The notes: generated by a model from the sequence alone, not told the origin. 64,000 nt of DNA from an uncultured Bacilli bacterium (GCA_947627925.1 CANQXW010000002.1:9575-73574), one strand, 5' to 3'; shown: positions 50,422 to 57,848, numbered from the stretch's first letter. Numbers and translations are program-made.

Positions 50422-50531
50422 AATAAAAAAACGCCTAATTCAGCAATTAACTACCCCAACTTAAATTCGGCAACATCCAACACAGAAATATTTGAATGTT
50501 CCTTTTTTATTGTATTCAAGTTTCCTTGAAC
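50422..50531 (-). ncRNA. candidate small RNA (orphan copy of the module at 56.8 kb)
   Basis: It lies downstream of the promoter at 50538-50567. It has the 5' hairpin UGUUCAAG-GAAA-CUUGAAUA, then AAAAAAGGAACAUUCAAAUAUU..., and ends at a GCCgAAUU...AAUUaGGC stem followed by GUUUUUUU. The boundaries are inferred. Confidence 0.3.
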
Positions 50532-50537
50532 AATAAT

Positions 50538-50567
50538 ATTATAGCATGTAATGATTTTTTCTGCCAA
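50538..50567 (-). promoter_or_regulatory. sigma-A-type promoter (extended -10), copy A
   Basis: On the minus strand, TTGGCA, an 18-nt spacer, then TGcTATAAT. Confidence 0.5.
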
Positions 50568-50596
50568 AAAAAGATACTCTATTTCTAAAGTATCTT
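50564..50596 (-). terminator. intrinsic terminator of surface-protein gene 1
   Basis: On the minus strand, AAGATACT-ttagaaatag-AGTATCTT followed by T7. Confidence 0.7.
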
Positions 50597-50731
50597 CTCT
50601 ATACTAATTTGTAAATAATTGTTTTACAATTACCACAAGTTCTGTGGAAAGGTTTGTGAGAATGAACTTTAGGGTGTTTGCGAGTCCCTAAAATTTATTT
50701 AAACAATTTATTTACCAATTTAGTAACTTAA

Positions 50732-52219
50732 TTAGTTGTTTTCTTTTCTTTTTGTAGAAAAGCTAACTGTTAAGGCACTTACTAGACCTAATCCAGCATA
50801 AACTAAGATATTATCATTAGTTTTTGGTACATCTGGCACATTAGGGTTTGTGTCTTCTGGAGTTGTTCCTGGAGTGTTTGCTTCGTCTCCAGTACTTCCT
50901 TGTTGATCTTCAGGTTTTTTATCTGGTGCTTGAGCGCCATTACCTACTACCACGTTTCCATTTTCATCAGTTGTGAATTCAGCGCTAGCTAATGCTTTAA
51001 CAAAATCATCATCTGAATATTTTTCAGAACCTAATCTTATATCATTACCAATTAATCCGCCAATGAATTCTCCACCTGAAATCATATTTTTATGTTGATC
51101 AAGGAAATTTTTATCTAAGTCTTCAATATGCATAACTGGTAAATATTTGCCGTTATTTCCTTTTCCACTTGTAAATTTGCCTCCTGAAACAGCTAATTTA
51201 GTATCTTCGGTTACTCCCTTGATATAAACAGCATATTCATTAGCCTTTTTAGCAGTAAATTCTCCACCTGAAATTGCTACATCAACATATTTTGGTCCAT
51301 TATAAGTAGTACCGTCATCATTTTGCATTGCAAGCACTGCAATTGCATGGTTAGATTCACCATCGTGAACTCCTTTTTGATGTTGTGCATCAGTAGCTGT
51401 ATAAGTACCACCAGTAATACTAACTTTACCACTTCTAACAGTAACAGCTTGAGCACCTTTTACAGTACCATTAATAGTCCAAATACCATATCCTGATGCG
51501 TATAAAGCTGTTGCTTGATTTGATGTATATGTACCAGCATTTACATTAATTACTGGTGCATTTTTATCATATGCAATAAATCCGTTAACCTTTATTACAT
51601 AGCCTTCAGTAGTCCAAGTACCATCCATATCAATTGTTGTATTCTTAGCTGTAGAAATTCTACTTGAAACCGGGCCATTAACTCCTAAAACTAAACCATA
51701 TCCAGTAGAAGTAACAGTAACATCCTTTCCAAAAGATACAGCAGTTGTAAGATCTGTATTATCATTTCCTGCAACTAATACAACAGCTGAATTATCATCA
51801 TCCGTGGTACCATTGCCTTTTAATTCAACTGAACCTTCTACCTTTAAAGTAGATCCAGCCTCAACTTTAATTAATGGAACACCTGCACCAGCAACATTTT
51901 TAATAATTCCGCTAGTTCCTGTTATAGTAACATTAGCATCTGATTTTATTATAATGCTGTGTCCATTGGCAACAGTAATAGTTTTACCATTTAAATCAAG
52001 AGTGATATCTTTATCAATATCTCTATCTACTGATAAACTTGATGCCTTTAATACTTTGACTGTATCACCTTTTTGAGCATGATCTAAAGCATCTGTTAAA
52101 GAAGTTTCACATACATCATTTAGATAAGCTTCACCCATACATTCAACTTCAGCTCTAACACCCATAGTCATTACTAACATACTTAGTAATGCGATTGCAA
52201 ACATTTTTAAACTTTTCAT
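50732..52219 (-). CDS. secreted, C-terminally anchored surface protein with beta-helix-like repeats, paralog 1
   Basis: Signal peptide MKSLKMFAIALLSMLVMTMGVRA. Repeated SGG(T/E/K)F(T/I) turns. A Pro/Glu/Asp linker. C-terminal VPKTNDN, a hydrophobic helix and KRKENN. Confidence 0.8.
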   Translation of the reverse strand: MKSLKMFAIALLSMLVMTMGVRAEVECMGEAYLNDVCETSLTDALDHAQKGDTVKVLKASSLSVDRDIDKDITLDLNGKTITVANGHSIIIKSDANVTITGTSGIIKNVAGAGVPLIKVEAGSTLKVEGSVELKGNGTTDDDNSAVVLVAGNDNTDLTTAVSFGKDVTVTSTGYGLVLGVNGPVSSRISTAKNTTIDMDGTWTTEGYVIKVNGFIAYDKNAPVINVNAGTYTSNQATALYASGYGIWTINGTVKGAQAVTVRSGKVSITGGTYTATDAQHQKGVHDGESNHAIAVLAMQNDDGTTYNGPKYVDVAISGGEFTAKKANEYAVYIKGVTEDTKLAVSGGKFTSGKGNNGKYLPVMHIEDLDKNFLDQHKNMISGGEFIGGLIGNDIRLGSEKYSDDDFVKALASAEFTTDENGNVVVGNGAQAPDKKPEDQQGSTGDEANTPGTTPEDTNPNVPDVPKTNDNILVYAGLGLVSALTVSFSTKRKENN

Positions 52220-52248
52220 CTTTTTTCCTCTTTCCTTTCTATGCGTTA

Positions 52249-52279
52249 ATTATACCCCCCCCCGTATTCGATTTGTCAA
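52249..52279 (-). promoter_or_regulatory. consensus promoter with a G9 tract inside its 19-nt spacer (gene 1)
   Basis: On the minus strand, TTGACA (plus 52274-52279), aatcgaatac+GGGGGGGGG (C-run at plus 52255-52263), then TATAAT (52249-52254). The ATG is about 30 nt downstream. The -35 lies in one arm of the 10-bp inverted repeat GATTTGTCAA/TTGACAAATC (52270-52308). Confidence 0.7.
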
Positions 52280-52544
52280 TACTTATTTTTGCTAATTTTT
52301 GACAAATCATTATTTTTTACAAAAAAGATATAATTTCTTTATATTATATTTATTATTTTATATTTTGATTACAATTTAAAAAATTATATACTATTATCGT
52401 GTAAATAAGGATCATTCTAAAATAAAAAGAGAAAATTCACTTAGTAACTTTCTCAATTTATTATAATCCTACTCCTATTTCTAGTTGTAATTTTATTACT
52501 TCTGAAATAAAAAAATTTGTATTCAAGTTTCCTTGAACAATAAT

Positions 52545-52574
52545 ATTATAGCATGTAATTACTTTTTCTGCCAA
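52545..52574 (-). promoter_or_regulatory. sigma-A-type promoter (extended -10), copy B
   Basis: TTGGCA, an 18-nt spacer, then TGcTATAAT. The GAAA-tetraloop hairpin is followed here by ACAAAUUUUUUUAUUU, so the transcript would probably be very short. Confidence 0.45.
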
Positions 52575-52603
52575 AAAAAGATACCTTATTTCTAAAGTAT
52601 CTT
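52571..52603 (-). terminator. intrinsic terminator of surface-protein gene 2
   Basis: A 7-bp stem AAGATAC/GTATCTT followed by T7. Confidence 0.65.
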
Positions 52604-52738
52604 CTCTATACTAATTTGTAAATAATTGTTTTACAATTACCACAAGTTTTGTGGAAAGGTTTGTGAGAATGAACTTTAGGGTGTTTGCGAGTCCCTAAAA
52701 TTTATTTAAACAATTTATTTACCAATTTAGTAGCTTAA

Positions 52739-54196
52739 TTAATTGTTTTCTTTTCTTTTTGCAGAAAAGCTAACTGTTAAGGCACTTACTAGACCTAAAC
52801 CAGCATAAACAAGAATGTTATCATTTGTTTTTGCAGGTTCGTCTGGTAAACGACCTGTTGTTCCGTCTGCTGGAGTGTTTGCGTCTCCAGTATTTCCTTG
52901 ATCTTCAGGTTTTGTTTGATCTTCTGGTTTTTGTTCATCAGCAGGGGTGTTAGTATTAACATCACCTTTAACTAATTCAGCAGTAAATTCTTCATCAGTA
53001 TATTTTACGCCATCTACAGTAATTTCACCAACTACACCGCCAGTGAATGTTCCACCAGTAATCATATCTTTATGATTTTCAAACATAAGTTGAGCACTAG
53101 CATTATTAACATACATAGCTGGTAATTGAGTTCCTTTAACTGAATCTTTACCACTTGTAAATGTACCACCACTGATAGCTAATTTAGATCCTTCAACTAT
53201 TTTTCCGACATATATTGCATACGCATCTTCAGTATTAGCAGTAAATGTACCACCTGAAACAATTAAATTCATATATTCTGGATGATATGTAGAACTATCT
53301 TTCTTTTCGTCTCCTAAGATAGCAATAGCATGATTACCTTCGCCATCGTGAACACCTTCACCGTTTTTTGTATTAGTAGCTGTATAACTTCCTCCACTAA
53401 TATCTACCTTACCACTTCTAACTGCAACAGCTTGAGAGCCTTTTACAGTCCCACCATCAATATCCCATTCAGCATATCCTGATGCATATAATGCAGTTGC
53501 TTTATTTGAAGTATATGTACCTTCAGCTATAGTAATCTTCACAGGATTAGAACTTTTAGTAATATATCCATTAACTTTTACAACATAAGCATCTGTAGTC
53601 CAGGTACCATTCATTGTAATATCAATATTTTGAGCCGTTGTAGTAGATCCATCACCAACAACTAAACCATGTAATTTTGAAGTAGCGACAACACCTTTTT
53701 CAAAATATACAGTAGTATTGTTAGTATTGATGTTTTTTACTCTTACAACAGCAGAGTCAATTTCAGTAGCATTATTGACTAAATTAACTGAATCTTCTAC
53801 CTTTAATGTAGCTCCAGAATTTACAGTAATCAATGATGTTTTAACTGCTGCAACATTTTCAACTGTACCAGTTCCTTTCAAAGTAAGTTTTGCACCATTT
53901 ACTATAATTCCAGCACCATTAGTAGTAGTAAATTTAAGGCTCTTGCCGTTTAAATCAATAGTAATATTTTGACTAATTTCAATGGAACTGCTTTCTTCAG
54001 CATCAGCTTCTAGTTTAATTGTATCGCCAATTCCTGCTCCTCTAATAGCTGTAGATAAATCTGCATAACAAGTAAGTTTACCATCAACTAGTCTCGAATA
54101 CTCATCGTTACTATCTGTACATGATGCAGCATGTACACCTGTTGCCATTACAGCAAATGCCATAACAGCGATTGCAAACATTTTTAAACTTTTCAT
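52739..54196 (-). CDS. secreted, C-terminally anchored surface protein with beta-helix-like repeats, paralog 2
   Basis: Signal peptide MKSLKMFAIAVMAFAVMATGVHA. Shared blocks are TWTT..YV.KVNG, GTYTSN.ATALYASGY, VRSGKV and GVHDGE.NHAIA. The C-terminus is PAKTNDNILVYAGLGLVSALTVSFSAKRKENN. Confidence 0.8.
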   Translation of the reverse strand: MKSLKMFAIAVMAFAVMATGVHAASCTDSNDEYSRLVDGKLTCYADLSTAIRGAGIGDTIKLEADAEESSSIEISQNITIDLNGKSLKFTTTNGAGIIVNGAKLTLKGTGTVENVAAVKTSLITVNSGATLKVEDSVNLVNNATEIDSAVVRVKNINTNNTTVYFEKGVVATSKLHGLVVGDGSTTTAQNIDITMNGTWTTDAYVVKVNGYITKSSNPVKITIAEGTYTSNKATALYASGYAEWDIDGGTVKGSQAVAVRSGKVDISGGSYTATNTKNGEGVHDGEGNHAIAILGDEKKDSSTYHPEYMNLIVSGGTFTANTEDAYAIYVGKIVEGSKLAISGGTFTSGKDSVKGTQLPAMYVNNASAQLMFENHKDMITGGTFTGGVVGEITVDGVKYTDEEFTAELVKGDVNTNTPADEQKPEDQTKPEDQGNTGDANTPADGTTGRLPDEPAKTNDNILVYAGLGLVSALTVSFSAKRKENN

Positions 54197-54225
54197 CTTT
54201 TTTCCTCTTTCCTTTCTATGCGTTA

Positions 54226-54256
54226 ATTATACCCCCCCCCGTATTCAATTTGTCAA
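54226..54256 (-). promoter_or_regulatory. consensus promoter with a G9 tract inside its 19-nt spacer (gene 2)
   Basis: TTGACA (plus 54251-54256), aattgaatac+G9 (C-run 54232-54240), then TATAAT (54226-54231). Confidence 0.7.
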
Positions 54257-54533
54257 TACTTATTTTTGCTAATTTTTGACAAATCACTGTTTTTTACAAA
54301 AAAGATATAATTTCTTTATATTATATTTATTATTTTATATTTTGATTACAATTTAAAATCATCATTAATTAAATACATATTTTCCAAATATTTTCATATA
54401 TTAAATAATGCAGCTTTTCTTAAAAACAGACAATTTATTAAAATTTTAGCCGCTTCGGGAGAAAATATCTCCCAAATATTTACTTTTTCGCTAAAAAATG
54501 CTAATATAAGTACAAAAAGGAGATGAAATACAT

Positions 54534-55733
54534 ATGTTAATTCAATTTAAATTTAAAAATCATAAATGTTTTTATGACGAAACTTTTTTAGACTTATTAG
54601 CCACTCAAGAAAAAAGGCATTTGGAATCGACAATTAATGTCAATGGTTATAATATCTTACCAGTAATTGCTATTCATGGAGCTAATGCTTCTGGAAAAAG
54701 TAGTGCCTTAGAGGCTTTAGATTTCATGTTTGAACTTATCAAGTATTCAAATAAAACTGATATTAAAAATAATTTACCAGCAAATCCCTTTTTATTTAGT
54801 CAAAAAAGTGCTGATGAAAATAGCGAATATGAAATCTCAATTTGCTTAGGTGATTATGAATATCGTTACGGATTCTCATTAAATAAACAACAAATTGATG
54901 AAGAATGGTTATATGTTAAAAAATTTGCTATTAATACTAAAGCTTCCCAAAAAACTATTTTTGAAAGATCAAATAATAAAGTTACCTTTGGCAAAAATTA
55001 TGCTAAATATGAAAAAACTTGGAATTTATTTGGAAAAGATATTATTATAAATACTAATAAACTATTAGTTTTAAGTAATTTAGCCATTAAAGAAGAAACT
55101 GGTATTTTAAGAGATATTTATGATTATATTTGTAAATTTGATTTTAAACTAGCTAGCGAATTTCAAAAAGCCAGTATTGATATCTTAACCCAAGACGATT
55201 CAATATTTCAAAAATTTCAAAATATTATTAATGAATTTGATCCTTGTTTACTAGGAATTGAAATTGTTCCCGTAGAAACAGAAGAGGGAGAAAAATATAT
55301 TATTAGTGGTATTCATAAAAATATTGATAATTCTAAATTACCAATTTCAATCCCTATTCATAAAGAATCTGATGGTACTATTCGTCTTTTTGGTATTATA
55401 CCAAGAATTTTAAAAAATTTAGAAAATGGGGGATTATTATGTATTGACGAAATAGATATAAAATTACACCCTTTATTATTTAAAAAAATTGTAAGTATGT
55501 ATATGGATAAAACAATTAATAAAAATAATGCCCAGTTAATTTATACTTCCCATTCAACATTTTTATTTAATAGTAATACTTTACGAAGAGATCAATTATA
55601 TCTTGTCGAAAAAGATAACACTGGGAAATCCAAGTTATACTCTTTGTCAGAATTTAGAGATTTACGAGCTGATGCCGATTATGAAAAAAAATATTTAACT
55701 GGTCAGTTCGGAGCCATTCCATATGAGAAATAG
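54534..55733 (+). CDS. ABC/SMC-like AAA_21-type ATPase (defence-associated family)
   Basis: Walker A GANASGKSS, signature-like ESDGTIRLF, Walker B LLCIDEIDIKLHP and H-loop YTSHS. It is followed by an RloB-like gene. Confidence 0.75.
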   Translation: MLIQFKFKNHKCFYDETFLDLLATQEKRHLESTINVNGYNILPVIAIHGANASGKSSALEALDFMFELIKYSNKTDIKNNLPANPFLFSQKSADENSEYEISICLGDYEYRYGFSLNKQQIDEEWLYVKKFAINTKASQKTIFERSNNKVTFGKNYAKYEKTWNLFGKDIIINTNKLLVLSNLAIKEETGILRDIYDYICKFDFKLASEFQKASIDILTQDDSIFQKFQNIINEFDPCLLGIEIVPVETEEGEKYIISGIHKNIDNSKLPISIPIHKESDGTIRLFGIIPRILKNLENGGLLCIDEIDIKLHPLLFKKIVSMYMDKTINKNNAQLIYTSHSTFLFNSNTLRRDQLYLVEKDNTGKSKLYSLSEFRDLRADADYEKKYLTGQFGAIPYEK

Positions 55734-55741
55734 GTAAAAAT

Positions 55742-56430
55742 ATGGGAAGTGACAATTTATATAAAAGACGTACTACCGAAAGGCGTCAAAGACAAGAAAA
55801 TATAAAAAAGAACGCTCTAGTAATTGGTTAATAGTATGTGAGGGAAAGAAAACAGAACCAAACTATTTTACAAACGCTATTGAAGAAATTAATAAAAATA
55901 TTGATAGTAAATATAAATTTAAAGTCAAAATTGTTGGTAAAGGAATGAATACCAAATCTTTAGTTAAAGCGGCAGATTTACAAATTGAAATTGATAAATA
56001 TTCTTATAATGAAATACCATATGGAAAAATATTTGTTGTATTTGATAAAGATAGCTTTGATGCTGATGATTTTGATGAAGCAATAAAAATGTGTGAAAAT
56101 AATGGGTATATTCCACTATGGTCTAACCAAGCAATTGAATTTTGGTTTTTATTACATTTTAATTATATATTTTCTAAAATGAATAGAACAGAATATGCTA
56201 AAAAAATTAATGAATATTTTAAAAAGAAAGGGCTTAATTATAAATATAAGAAAAATGACAAAGAAATATACAATTTACTTTGTAAATATGGTTCATTAGA
56301 AAAAGCCAAAACAAATGCTAAAAAAATTATGAAGGAGTTTCAAGGAGAAAAACCATCATTATCAGAAAGTTGTACAAATGTATATAAATTCTTTGATGAA
56401 ATTGATAGTCGATTAAAAGAATTAAAATAA
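55742..56430 (+). pseudogene. RloB-like (Toprim-like) protein gene, interrupted at an A_AAA_AAG / A6 run
   Basis: ATG at 55742 gives MGSDNLYKRRTTERRQRQENIKKNALVIG*. The -1 frame continues ERSSNWLIVCEGKKTEPNYF...VVFDKD...WSNQAIEFWFLLHF (RloB signatures) to 56430. The A-run is at 55804-55809; A7 or a -1 slip restores the frame. Confidence 0.7.
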
Positions 56431-56471: not shown

Positions 56472-56475
56472 ATTT

Positions 56476-56577
56476 ATACTAATTTTGTAAATAATTGCTT
56501 GACAATTAATGCCATAATTTCTTTATGTTATATTGCTTATTTTATTTTTTGACTACATTTTAAAAAAGTTTCATAAT
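56476..56577. repeat. fused copy of the two cassette flanks (cassette-less junction)
   Basis: tatactaattttgtaaataattgcttgacaatta matches the 3' flank of units A/B (50601-50632). ataatttctttatgttatattgcttattttattttttgactacattttaaaaaa matches their 5' flank (52330-52381). Only about 6 nt (atgcc) lie between the two. Confidence 0.7.
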
Positions 56578-56769: not shown

Positions 56770-56885
56770 ATTGAAAAGAACCTAACTCATCATCTATGAT
56801 TTAGGTTCAACCAAAATAAATTCTGCAACACTCAACACTAGAATATTTGAATGTTCCTTTTTTATTGTATTCAAGTTTCCTTGAC
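56770..56885 (-). ncRNA. convergent small RNA, candidate type I antitoxin
   Basis: It starts after the promoter at 56892-56920. It has the GAAA-tetraloop hairpin and AAAAAAGGAACAUUCAAAUAUUC.... It ends at the 8-bp terminator GAACCUAA/UUAGGUUC followed by UUUUC, right at the peptide stop codon. The U-run exists only on this strand. Confidence 0.4.
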
Positions 56886-56891
56886 ATATTC

Positions 56892-56920
56892 ATTATAACA
56901 TATAATTAATTTAATGACAA
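56892..56920 (-). promoter_or_regulatory. sigma-A-type promoter, copy C (drives the convergent small RNA)
   Basis: On the minus strand, TTGTCA (plus 56915-56920), a 17-nt spacer, then TATAAT (56892-56897). Confidence 0.55.
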
Positions 56921-56921
56921 A

Positions 56922-57848
56922 TTATTCTATATAAAACTCCCATAAATTCTTAATTTGACCTTTAAGACGACTATAATCCCAAAGAATATTACTTCTTATT
57001 TTACTATTAGGATCATTTACCTTTATTTTTCCATCTTGAACACTCACTAACACAATGTAATGGCCATTGATTGTAAAATCTCCTTTCCGCATACTACAAA
57101 TAATAGGATGTCCATTATTTAAAGCATTTTTAATACTTGCCTCATCTAAAGGAAGTTCTTTGGATTTAAGACCAAAATGATTCGCACCTTTCCGCATTAA
57201 ATCCCATGTTGTTCCACTACTTTCTAAATAATAACCATTTTCATAAGCGTATTTACTAACTTCATAAGGCGTATAATCACCGTTACCAGTTAAACCCGCA
57301 ATTACCATAGCTAGTGATGTTGGACCACAACCACTAATAGCAACATTACTACTGCCATATTTGCCATAACCCCATCTTTCATCCCATTGGAGTAACAACG
57401 GTATTTCTCCTTTTGTTACACTACCAATATTATCACTATAAACTTTGTCTTTCTTTTCTTGATAATTTAAGACAAAATCAGTAAGTTCAATATTTCTGGA
57501 TAAATCCTCTAATAATACTTCTGGATAGGTATTATAATTATCAATAATATCATTAATTCTTTTATCAATTTTACTGAAATTTTTTAATCTTTCCCTAATT
57601 GTTCCCTTTTCATACTTAAGCATCGAAACATCTTCATATGTTTGATATTTACTATAATCAATATTATCTTTATTTTCTTCATGATTATCATTATCAATAA
57701 TTACAGTATCAAGGGTTAACATTTTAAAATAATGATAATAAAAGAAAATTATGCCTCCGATTAATCCTAAAATAATTATTAATTTTAATATTTTTTTTCG
57801 TTTTTTTCTTCTTTTCATAAAACACCTCATTATAAAACCCATTTTCAT
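56922..57848 (-). CDS. membrane-anchored C39-like cysteine peptidase domain protein
   Basis: A basic N-terminus and TM helix. SGCGPTSLAMVIAG, and later GHYIVLV, are typical of the Peptidase_C39_2 family. The start is ambiguous. Confidence 0.7.
   Translation of the reverse strand: MKMGFIMRCFMKRRKKRKKILKLIIILGLIGGIIFFYYHYFKMLTLDTVIIDNDNHEENKDNIDYSKYQTYEDVSMLKYEKGTIRERLKNFSKIDKRINDIIDNYNTYPEVLLEDLSRNIELTDFVLNYQEKKDKVYSDNIGSVTKGEIPLLLQWDERWGYGKYGSSNVAISGCGPTSLAMVIAGLTGNGDYTPYEVSKYAYENGYYLESSGTTWDLMRKGANHFGLKSKELPLDEASIKNALNNGHPIICSMRKGDFTINGHYIVLVSVQDGKIKVNDPNSKIRSNILWDYSRLKGQIKNLWEFYIE

Follow-up and report, generated by a model that had tools for sequence, protein, structure and literature searches.

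Tandem cassettes for predicted variable surface proteins, with homogenised ends and old cores, in an uncultured Bacilli bacterium

How can two neighbouring genes be almost identical at both ends and differ heavily through most of their length? The question is raised by units A and B, two tandem expression cassettes in a 64,000-nucleotide stretch of DNA (GCA_947627925.1 CANQXW010000002.1:9575-73574; hereafter the window) from an uncultured Bacilli bacterium. The source is a metagenome-assembled genome (MAG) of 1.16 Mb, with 28% GC and 88% completeness, whose relatives are bins labelled 'uncultured Bacilli' that originate from the rabbit gut. We consider it probable, although some way from certain, that A and B belong to a multigene family whose members are self-contained cassettes, each for a variable surface protein, that the ends of these cassettes are homogenised, and that a G tract in each promoter would act as a switch.

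Ends kept alike by recombination around old cores

Comparison of A with B by blastn left two blocks of high identity, one of 191 nucleotides (nt) at the 5' end (52191-52381 versus 54168-54358; 98.4%) and one of 318 nt at the 3' end (50510-50826 versus 52517-52833; 95.9%), with only patches of at most 80% identity between them. Identity was bimodal in a 50-column sliding window (0.88-1.00 in the flanks, 0.36-0.80 in the core), and the longest identical run was 83 nt, against a maximum of 52 nt in 10,000 permutations of the difference positions (P < 1e-4). A preliminary description of the locus had counted three differences in the non-coding 5' flank and six in the non-coding 3' flank, and these counts stand (3 of 162 nt and 6 of 222 nt), as does the heavy divergence it noted in the central ~400 codons, for which we obtained 48% protein identity and a synonymous divergence (dS) of 0.73. 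Its statement that the signal peptide and the last codons are also almost identical needs qualification: the first ten codons are identical, but the hydrophobic region is of a different type in the two genes (69 nt at 76%), and the last 26 codons are near-identical as protein (non-synonymous divergence, dN, 0.03) but carry synonymous changes (dS 0.34).

Flanks cluster by genome and cores do not. In the core tree, B is sister to G019_C4/P0002 (support 100/99) and A is sister to G012_C89 (support 99/97), A and B not being grouped together, so the split between their cores predates these species splits. Genome labels change eight times on this tree, a number equalled or undercut in 47 of 200 shuffles, and are not clustered; on the 5' flank tree they change four times, which is the minimum, and none of 200 shuffles was as low. 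Divergence (K) between A and B is 0.019 in the 5' flank and 0.028 in the 3' flank, set against the dS of 0.73 in the core. Identity of the 5' flank was 0.96 within genome G000, 0.93 within G019 and 0.84 between the two, and that of the C-terminal 78 nt was 1.00 within G019 versus 0.87. Among four G019 paralogues whose cores are 31-41% identical, identity is 91-94% in the 5' flank, 100% over the final 78 coding nt and 92-95% in the 3' flank; the corresponding values for the ortholog pair G001_6191/G019_6026, with 81% core identity, are 85%, 82% and 69%.

Between species, the 3' flank has a K of 0.37-0.40, close to dS and hence near-neutral, and constraint alone therefore cannot explain its 97% identity within the source genome. 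In the 5' region, four gametes were present at 566 of 946 informative site pairs, and every combination was seen of ribosome-binding site type, signal-peptide type and the single-nucleotide variants to both sides of the G tract. RecA is present in the source genome. The earlier suggestion that the ends evolve in concert, or by gene conversion, is thus well supported by the clustering of flanks but not cores by genome, by the abundant four-gamete signal and by a 3' flank that is near-neutral between species and almost identical within the source genome. Because divergence was bimodal and the recombination signal strong, what was found was neither uniform divergence nor a low dN/dS (omega) without recombination. 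The ends are kept alike within a genome by recombination or gene conversion around old cores, and the cores are deeply diverged lineages that cross species boundaries rather than products of fast divergence after a recent duplication. Mechanistically, homologous recombination, whether as conversion between paralogues, as exchange of cores through the ends or as both, homogenises the ends and so yields the mosaic.

The other explanation offered in the preliminary description, diversifying selection on an exposed core, was not established: gene-wide core dN/dS was 0.27-0.64 across eight pairs (0.60 for A versus B, with dN 0.44), only a few noisy 40-codon windows reached ~1 to 1.3, and the synonymous divergence is that expected of old lineages. 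Pairwise Nei-Gojobori estimates and sliding windows, in which dS was near saturation for most pairs, gave no convincing signal of positive selection. We read the core omega as relaxed constraint, perhaps with some selected sites.

An alternative interpretation is that cores are swapped between strains or species via the conserved ends, which would serve as handles for recombination, by allelic replacement after DNA uptake, and that conversion within a genome is not the main process. The core lineages do cross species (core identity reaches 81% for G001 versus G019), copy number and site occupancy differ between relatives (a cassette remnant at 56475-56565 here versus an intact cassette in G001), and the family is patchy, with homologues in nine of 25 searched genomes of the genus. 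We nevertheless regard this interpretation as rather unlikely, because the genome-specific flank variants common to all paralogues require homogenisation within the genome too.

Several points weigh against the weight that we place on homogenised ends. The data accommodate conversion between paralogues and, equally, a trade of cores among strains by way of the conserved ends. All genomes used are short-read MAGs, and assemblers can cross-thread or collapse near-identical repeats and thereby inflate flank identity. An independent assembly of the same strain, ERZ27249519, matches the genome at 99.9% identity over ~18 kb (L098 and L099 versus contigs C2 and C15), and all 22 of the 22 differences lie at cassette-flank positions that are variable among paralogues: the 5' flank of A has the three variants of B, one 3' flank site is switched, and both C15 cassettes have the C2-type ribosome-binding site and start. 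Likewise, the G019_C4 cassette differs between two assemblies at two positions in 1720 nt, both of them paralogue-variant flank sites. Such flank-only differences between assemblies of the same strain may be either live gene conversion or mis-threading by the assembler. That short-read assembly of paralogous repeats inflated both these differences and the near-identity of the flanks, as the frequent ending of relatives' contigs in cassette flanks might also suggest, is in our judgement improbable, since the same mosaic occurs in at least six separately assembled species with their own flank variants, paralogues still differ at some sites, and the window contig spans both units.

Less probable again is that the ends are alike through functional constraint only, with no recombination required. 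The 5' flank is conserved between species (K 0.10-0.17 versus dS 0.43-0.52), and no protein segments are better conserved across the family than the signal peptide and anchor, but the 3' flank diverges freely between species and hardly at all within the genome, species-specific substitutions are common to all paralogues of a genome, the homology between A and B stops inside an unrelated small-RNA-like module, and the four-gamete signal is abundant. Least credible of all is a recent tandem duplication after which positive selection drove the exposed cores apart very fast. Although A and B are adjacent, have flanks 97-98% identical and show a few 40-codon windows with dN/dS of ~1, selection on protein could not raise the core dS to 0.73, each core is less close to its neighbour than to a gene from a different species, and the gene-wide dN/dS is 0.6.

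Cassette anatomy, predicted proteins and the family

On the minus strand, each cassette runs from an AT-rich leader through an inverted repeat, a consensus sigma-A promoter, a ribosome-binding site (GGAAAGAGG) and the coding sequence to three hairpins, a strong intrinsic terminator and the start of a small-RNA-like module (Table 1). The run of hairpins that the preliminary description placed in the 3' flank, terminator included, is upheld by folding (z = -5.65 versus shuffles). The right arm of the inverted repeat overlaps the -35 box; the repeat has a copy in unit B at 54248-54284 and is conserved in relatives, and we infer that it might be a regulator site. The spacer between the units resembles the sequence upstream of cassette C15_3.

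Table 1. Positions of the cassettes, their parts and neighbouring features, numbered from the first letter of the window
Feature	Coordinates	Strand	Description	Basis
Unit A	50510-52381	-	Full expression cassette: 5' flank, gene A, 3' flank	blastn limits and MAFFT alignment
Small-RNA-like module start, after A	50515-50567	-	Promoter TTGGCA-18-TGcTATAAT and first hairpin; module complete here	
3' flank of A	50510-50731	-	Hairpins 50668-50692, 50633-50647, 50609-50629; intrinsic terminator 50566-50595	
Gene A	50732-52219	-	495 amino acids; signal peptide, beta-helix core (predicted), Pro/Asp/Glu/Thr-rich stalk, VPKTNDN, hydrophobic helix, KRKENN tail	
Promoter of A	52249-52279	-	TTGACA 52279-52274, 10 nt, G9 52263-52255, TATAAT 52254-52249; spacer 19 nt	
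Inverted repeat, unit A	52271-52307	-	Perfect, 9-bp, ATTTGTCAA / TTGACAAAT, 19-nt loop	
Spacer between units	52382-52516	-	135 nt, unique; terminator-like hairpin 52424-52454	
Unit B	52517-54358	-	Full expression cassette: 5' flank, gene B, 3' flank	blastn limits and MAFFT alignment
Small-RNA-like module start, unit B	52522-52574	-	Cut off where A/B homology ends	
3' flank of B	52517-52738	-	Hairpins 52675-52699, 52640-52654, 52616-52636; terminator 52573-52602	
Gene B	52739-54196	-	485 amino acids; architecture as gene A; motif PAKTNDN	
Promoter of B	54226-54256	-	TTGACA 54256-54251, 10 nt, G9 54240-54232, TATAAT 54231-54226; spacer 19 nt	
Cassette remnant	56475-56565	-	First ~52 nt of 5' flank joined to part of 3' flank, no gene	blastn 88-91%

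The small-RNA-like module comprises an extended -10 promoter, a TCAAGGAAACTTGA hairpin, a second stem and a terminator, and is present in ~13 copies genome-wide, with sites in the window at 50422-50567, 52522-52574 and 56770-56925. In every cassette the 3' flank has as its distal end the first 55 nt of this module, and the copy after A runs on to its own terminator. Because the homology between A and B stops in the middle of the module, the 3' limit of the units is an end-point of recombination or duplication and not a functional boundary. The module had no match in Rfam; for units A and B as a whole, Rfam gave none at the gathering score, the 3' flank returning sub-threshold, chance-level matches only.

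An AlphaFold2 model of protein B built on 34 homologues (predicted local distance difference test 84, predicted template modelling score 0.79) is a right-handed parallel beta-helix over residues ~30-420, with regular short strands at 33-416, beyond which come a disordered stalk rich in Pro/Asp/Glu/Thr and a C-terminal helix. The best Foldseek matches, to AlgG, AlgE4, phage tailspikes and the L. reuteri SRRP adhesin, are all beta-helices and all weak (E value 3e-3 to 0.5, template modelling score 0.3-0.45). In the model, then, the predicted fold has both the stacked three-stranded coils of a beta-helix and a structural likeness to known members. Pfam and NCBIfam gave no family above cut-off in 34 members, curated families such as Beta_helix and Pectate_lyase included, and PADLOC gave none for the surface proteins. 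Entropy along the helix was uniformly high, with glycines and a few structural residues kept; since only these are conserved in the core, an enzymatic role is unlikely. A reading of the proteins as lyases or epimerases was rejected, the core having no conserved polar or catalytic residue and Foldseek giving generic beta-helix likeness only.

The proteins begin with MKSLKMFAIA and end in (P/A)KTNDN-ILVYAGLGLVSALTVSFS-KRKENN, with T457, N458, D459 and N460 invariant, or nearly so, across the 34 sequences. Both of the two sortase genes in the genome are of class B (above the TIGR03064 cut-off), and one family member has a weak match to the IsdC model. Known substrates of class B sortases include S. 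aureus IsdC, with NPQTN, and L. monocytogenes SvpA, with NAKTN. The proteins studied here resemble such substrates in their tripartite C-terminal signal and xP/A-K/Q-T-N motif, in a genome with class B sortases only, but differ from them in having no NEAT or haem-uptake domains and in their motif, (P/A)KTND, of which T-N-D-N is invariant. A and B are accordingly best described, from their sequences and the model, as putative Sec-exported, single-domain beta-helix proteins with predicted anchoring of the class B sortase type. The label 'antigen-variation family', used in the preliminary description, fits this anatomy, namely predicted export and wall anchoring, hypervariable cores and a G-tract promoter. 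An unrelated exported protein of 456 amino acids adjoining the C15 cassettes (C15:15705-17075, plus strand) ends in NNPKTGD, a hydrophobic helix and a basic tail, a second type of class-B-sortase-like signal in the source genome.

The family profile matched 15,504 representative proteins, many of them of 2,000-7,000 amino acids with 10-29 copies of the module; one match is a hypothetical protein of a Ruminococcus MAG, and the matched proteins that were tested likewise had no Pfam family. The cassette proteins share with these giant multi-module beta-helix proteins of gut Firmicutes the module and, as modelled, a pectate-lyase-like fold, but carry one module per protein behind their own G-tract promoter.

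Five family members are present in the source genome, namely A, B and three on contig C15. Copy number is at least ten in G001 and seven in G019, tandem arrays are frequent, and none of 16 genomes outside the genus has a homologue. A search of the literature turned up no account of this clade or family, and an exact-protein look-up found protein B unrecorded and A and a C15 member in one independent assembly. The family is an undescribed multigene family carried by some members of a single genus of uncultured Bacilli from the rabbit gut. At the site in G001 that is syntenic to the cassette remnant of the window (contig C41) stands an intact cassette with a 515-amino-acid family gene, so the occupancy of a given site changes over time. 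Cassette B is separated from the remnant by a defence pair that looks like an insertion in the array, plus-strand genes for an AAA_21 ATPase and RloB (54534-56430) that match the PADLOC models AbiLi (5.7e-80) and AbiLii (1.3e-15).

G tracts in promoter spacers

All 12 G/C runs of eight or more in the source genome lie between TTGACA and TATAAT. Runs of nine were observed ten times against an expectation of 0.035, a ~290-fold excess, and runs of eight were in 8-fold excess; shorter runs were at chance level (11 runs of six against 12.7 expected, two runs of seven against 1.8). Four of the 12 promoters drive the surface-protein family, and in the remaining eight the flank is different and the spacer measures 15-16 nt. 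A scan of the genus for tracts of G8 or more, to which G7 is undetectable, found 79 class-1-type promoters in 18 of 42 genomes and none with a reversed-pattern control. Their tracts are G8 in 32, G9 in 44 and G10 in three, and their spacers 18 nt in 28, 19 nt in 47 and 20 nt in four. Within arrays whose flanks are identical, successive tracts measure 10, 9, 9 and 8 in one case and 8, 9, 10, 9, 9 and 9 in another, the latter a series of six promoters ~3.8 kb apart (G055:C4:5198-24398). The tract is maintained, but the sequence in the remainder of the spacer is free to vary.

The second class of promoters in the source genome has the form TTGACA-CC-G9-TGTTA-TATAAT, with G8-9, a spacer of 15-16 nt and a conserved ~120-nt leader (C4:42481, C5:28917, C6:70 and 17457, C7:866, C8:21522, C10:70 and C26:18862). 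These promoters drive operons for ~230-amino-acid 'KDSYAYYS'-signal proteins and their ~420-amino-acid partners, and one of them drives a WXG-like/EssC (type VII secretion) locus. The promoter of family member C15_1 (C15:7834-9330) has no G tract but GAAGTGAAG at that position, and its spacer is fixed at 18 nt; this member may be a copy that is expressed constitutively.

By analogy with promoters in other bacteria, slipped-strand ON/OFF switching by the promoter G tract is plausible, and the tract and spacer lengths found here are in keeping with it. The tract would change length by slipped-strand mispairing; G8 would give an 18-nt spacer, which may be permissive, and G9 or G10 a spacer of 19-20 nt, which may be weak or off. 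Because the tract in each promoter would change length, each cassette would switch independently of the others, and the set of surface proteins presented to host antibody, phages or neighbours may thus vary in its combinations across a population.

On a wider proposal, the cassettes would be one arm of a genus-wide contingency regulon, in which dozens of consensus sigma-A promoters, each with a G8-10 tract in the spacer, drive at least three unrelated secreted or surface gene sets: the class-B-sortase-anchored beta-helix proteins, the pilin-like or 'SYAYYS'-signal operons and a type VII secretion substrate operon. Conversion would keep the promoter and terminator modules uniform and portable while old core alleles are shuffled among sites and species, and the flank-only differences between same-strain assemblies would be conversion in progress. 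We put this forward tentatively, as a possibility short of an even chance.

Other observations count against a switch. Five orthologous promoters in independent assemblies all have the same G9, all copies in two species, G010 and G021, are G8, MutS is present, and none of ~50 class-1 promoters in the fetched loci, where the scan reached down to G6, had the optimal 17-nt spacer (G7). The presence of MutS also led us to reject a loss of mismatch repair as the source of tract instability. These observations would suit a tract that is a fixed promoter element, through special spacer geometry or by binding a regulator or an alternative sigma factor, rather than a mutational switch: orthologous tracts are equal in length, lengths are held within 8-10, and the 9-bp inverted repeat overlaps the -35 box. 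We think a fixed element doubtful, because tract lengths differ among paralogous promoters with identical surroundings, the non-G spacer is free to vary while the tract is kept, and G runs of 8-9 slip in other bacteria (PMC7864442).

The G-tract promoter had no match in metagenome contigs of the Joint Genome Institute (JGI). Near-identical promoters, TTGACAAAAAT(C/T)ATAC-G9/G8-TATACT, occur in L045, a contig of Bulleidia sp., and in L081, from a bin labelled Coriobacteriaceae; as neither belongs to the rabbit MAG clade, Erysipelotrichales-like gut bacteria may share the G-tract spacer design more widely.

Likeness to known systems and significance

Systems of comparable design are found in several pathogens. 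The Vlp system found in Mycoplasma hyorhinis was reportedly set out by Rosengarten and Wise in 1991 and by Citti and Wise in 1995. Like it, the family described here is a clustered set of surface-protein genes, each with its own promoter containing a homopolymer, a conserved 5' region and signal peptide, and divergent exposed regions. Independent, combinatorial ON/OFF switching is a feature of Vlp, and we suggest it for the cassettes by analogy. Vlps differ in being lipoproteins of a wall-less organism with repetitive, size-variable external regions and a poly(A) tract in the vlp promoters (PMC10502178; vlp work is also cited in PMC11868660). The cassettes have a poly(G) tract and predicted sortase-type anchored beta-helices with no conserved lipobox; there is no conserved Cys after the signal peptide and no homology to Vlps was found, so that the family does not belong with them.

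Promoter G tracts in a paralogous surface-protein family also occur among the tpr genes of Treponema pallidum, where the tracts measure 7-11 and that of tp0126 lies between the -35 and -10 boxes (PMC7864442). There, tprE, tprG and tprJ are transcribed only with eight or fewer Gs, near-clonal isolates carry ~81% G9 and 19% G8 at tprL, and for tprL ten Gs give background activity only (PMC7864442). Gene conversion is likewise known among tpr genes (tprK), but their products are outer-membrane beta-barrels of a spirochaete pathogen, whereas the cassettes belong to a Gram-positive clade of gut commensals, encode another fold and anchor, and are arranged in tandem with homogenised 3' flanks. By analogy, the system would work like the vlp and the tpr poly-G promoters while being a member of neither, as fold, anchor, tract base and host differ between them in the respects given and no homology was found.

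In Neisseria meningitidis, porA has a poly-G tract between the -35 and -10 boxes, and opc is comparable (see also PMC7864442). There the homopolymer in the promoter spacer sets the spacing and hence the level of expression, as it may here, but porA and opc are single genes and not a cassette family with concerted flanks.

Contingency loci and concerted families of surface antigens are textbook features of the pathogens Mycoplasma, Neisseria and Treponema, but have been little described in uncultured, small-genome commensal Firmicutes of the gut. The family reported here is a clean natural example of old, trans-species core alleles set within ends that are homogenised genome by genome, behind mutable-looking promoters. 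The family also draws attention to an undescribed beta-helix surface module, found again in giant gut-bacterial proteins by the thousand. The mosaic explains why metagenome assemblies break at cassette loci, and it leads to the prediction that strains of these bacteria would be heterogeneous at their surface in a way that the consensus assemblies of metagenomes mask.

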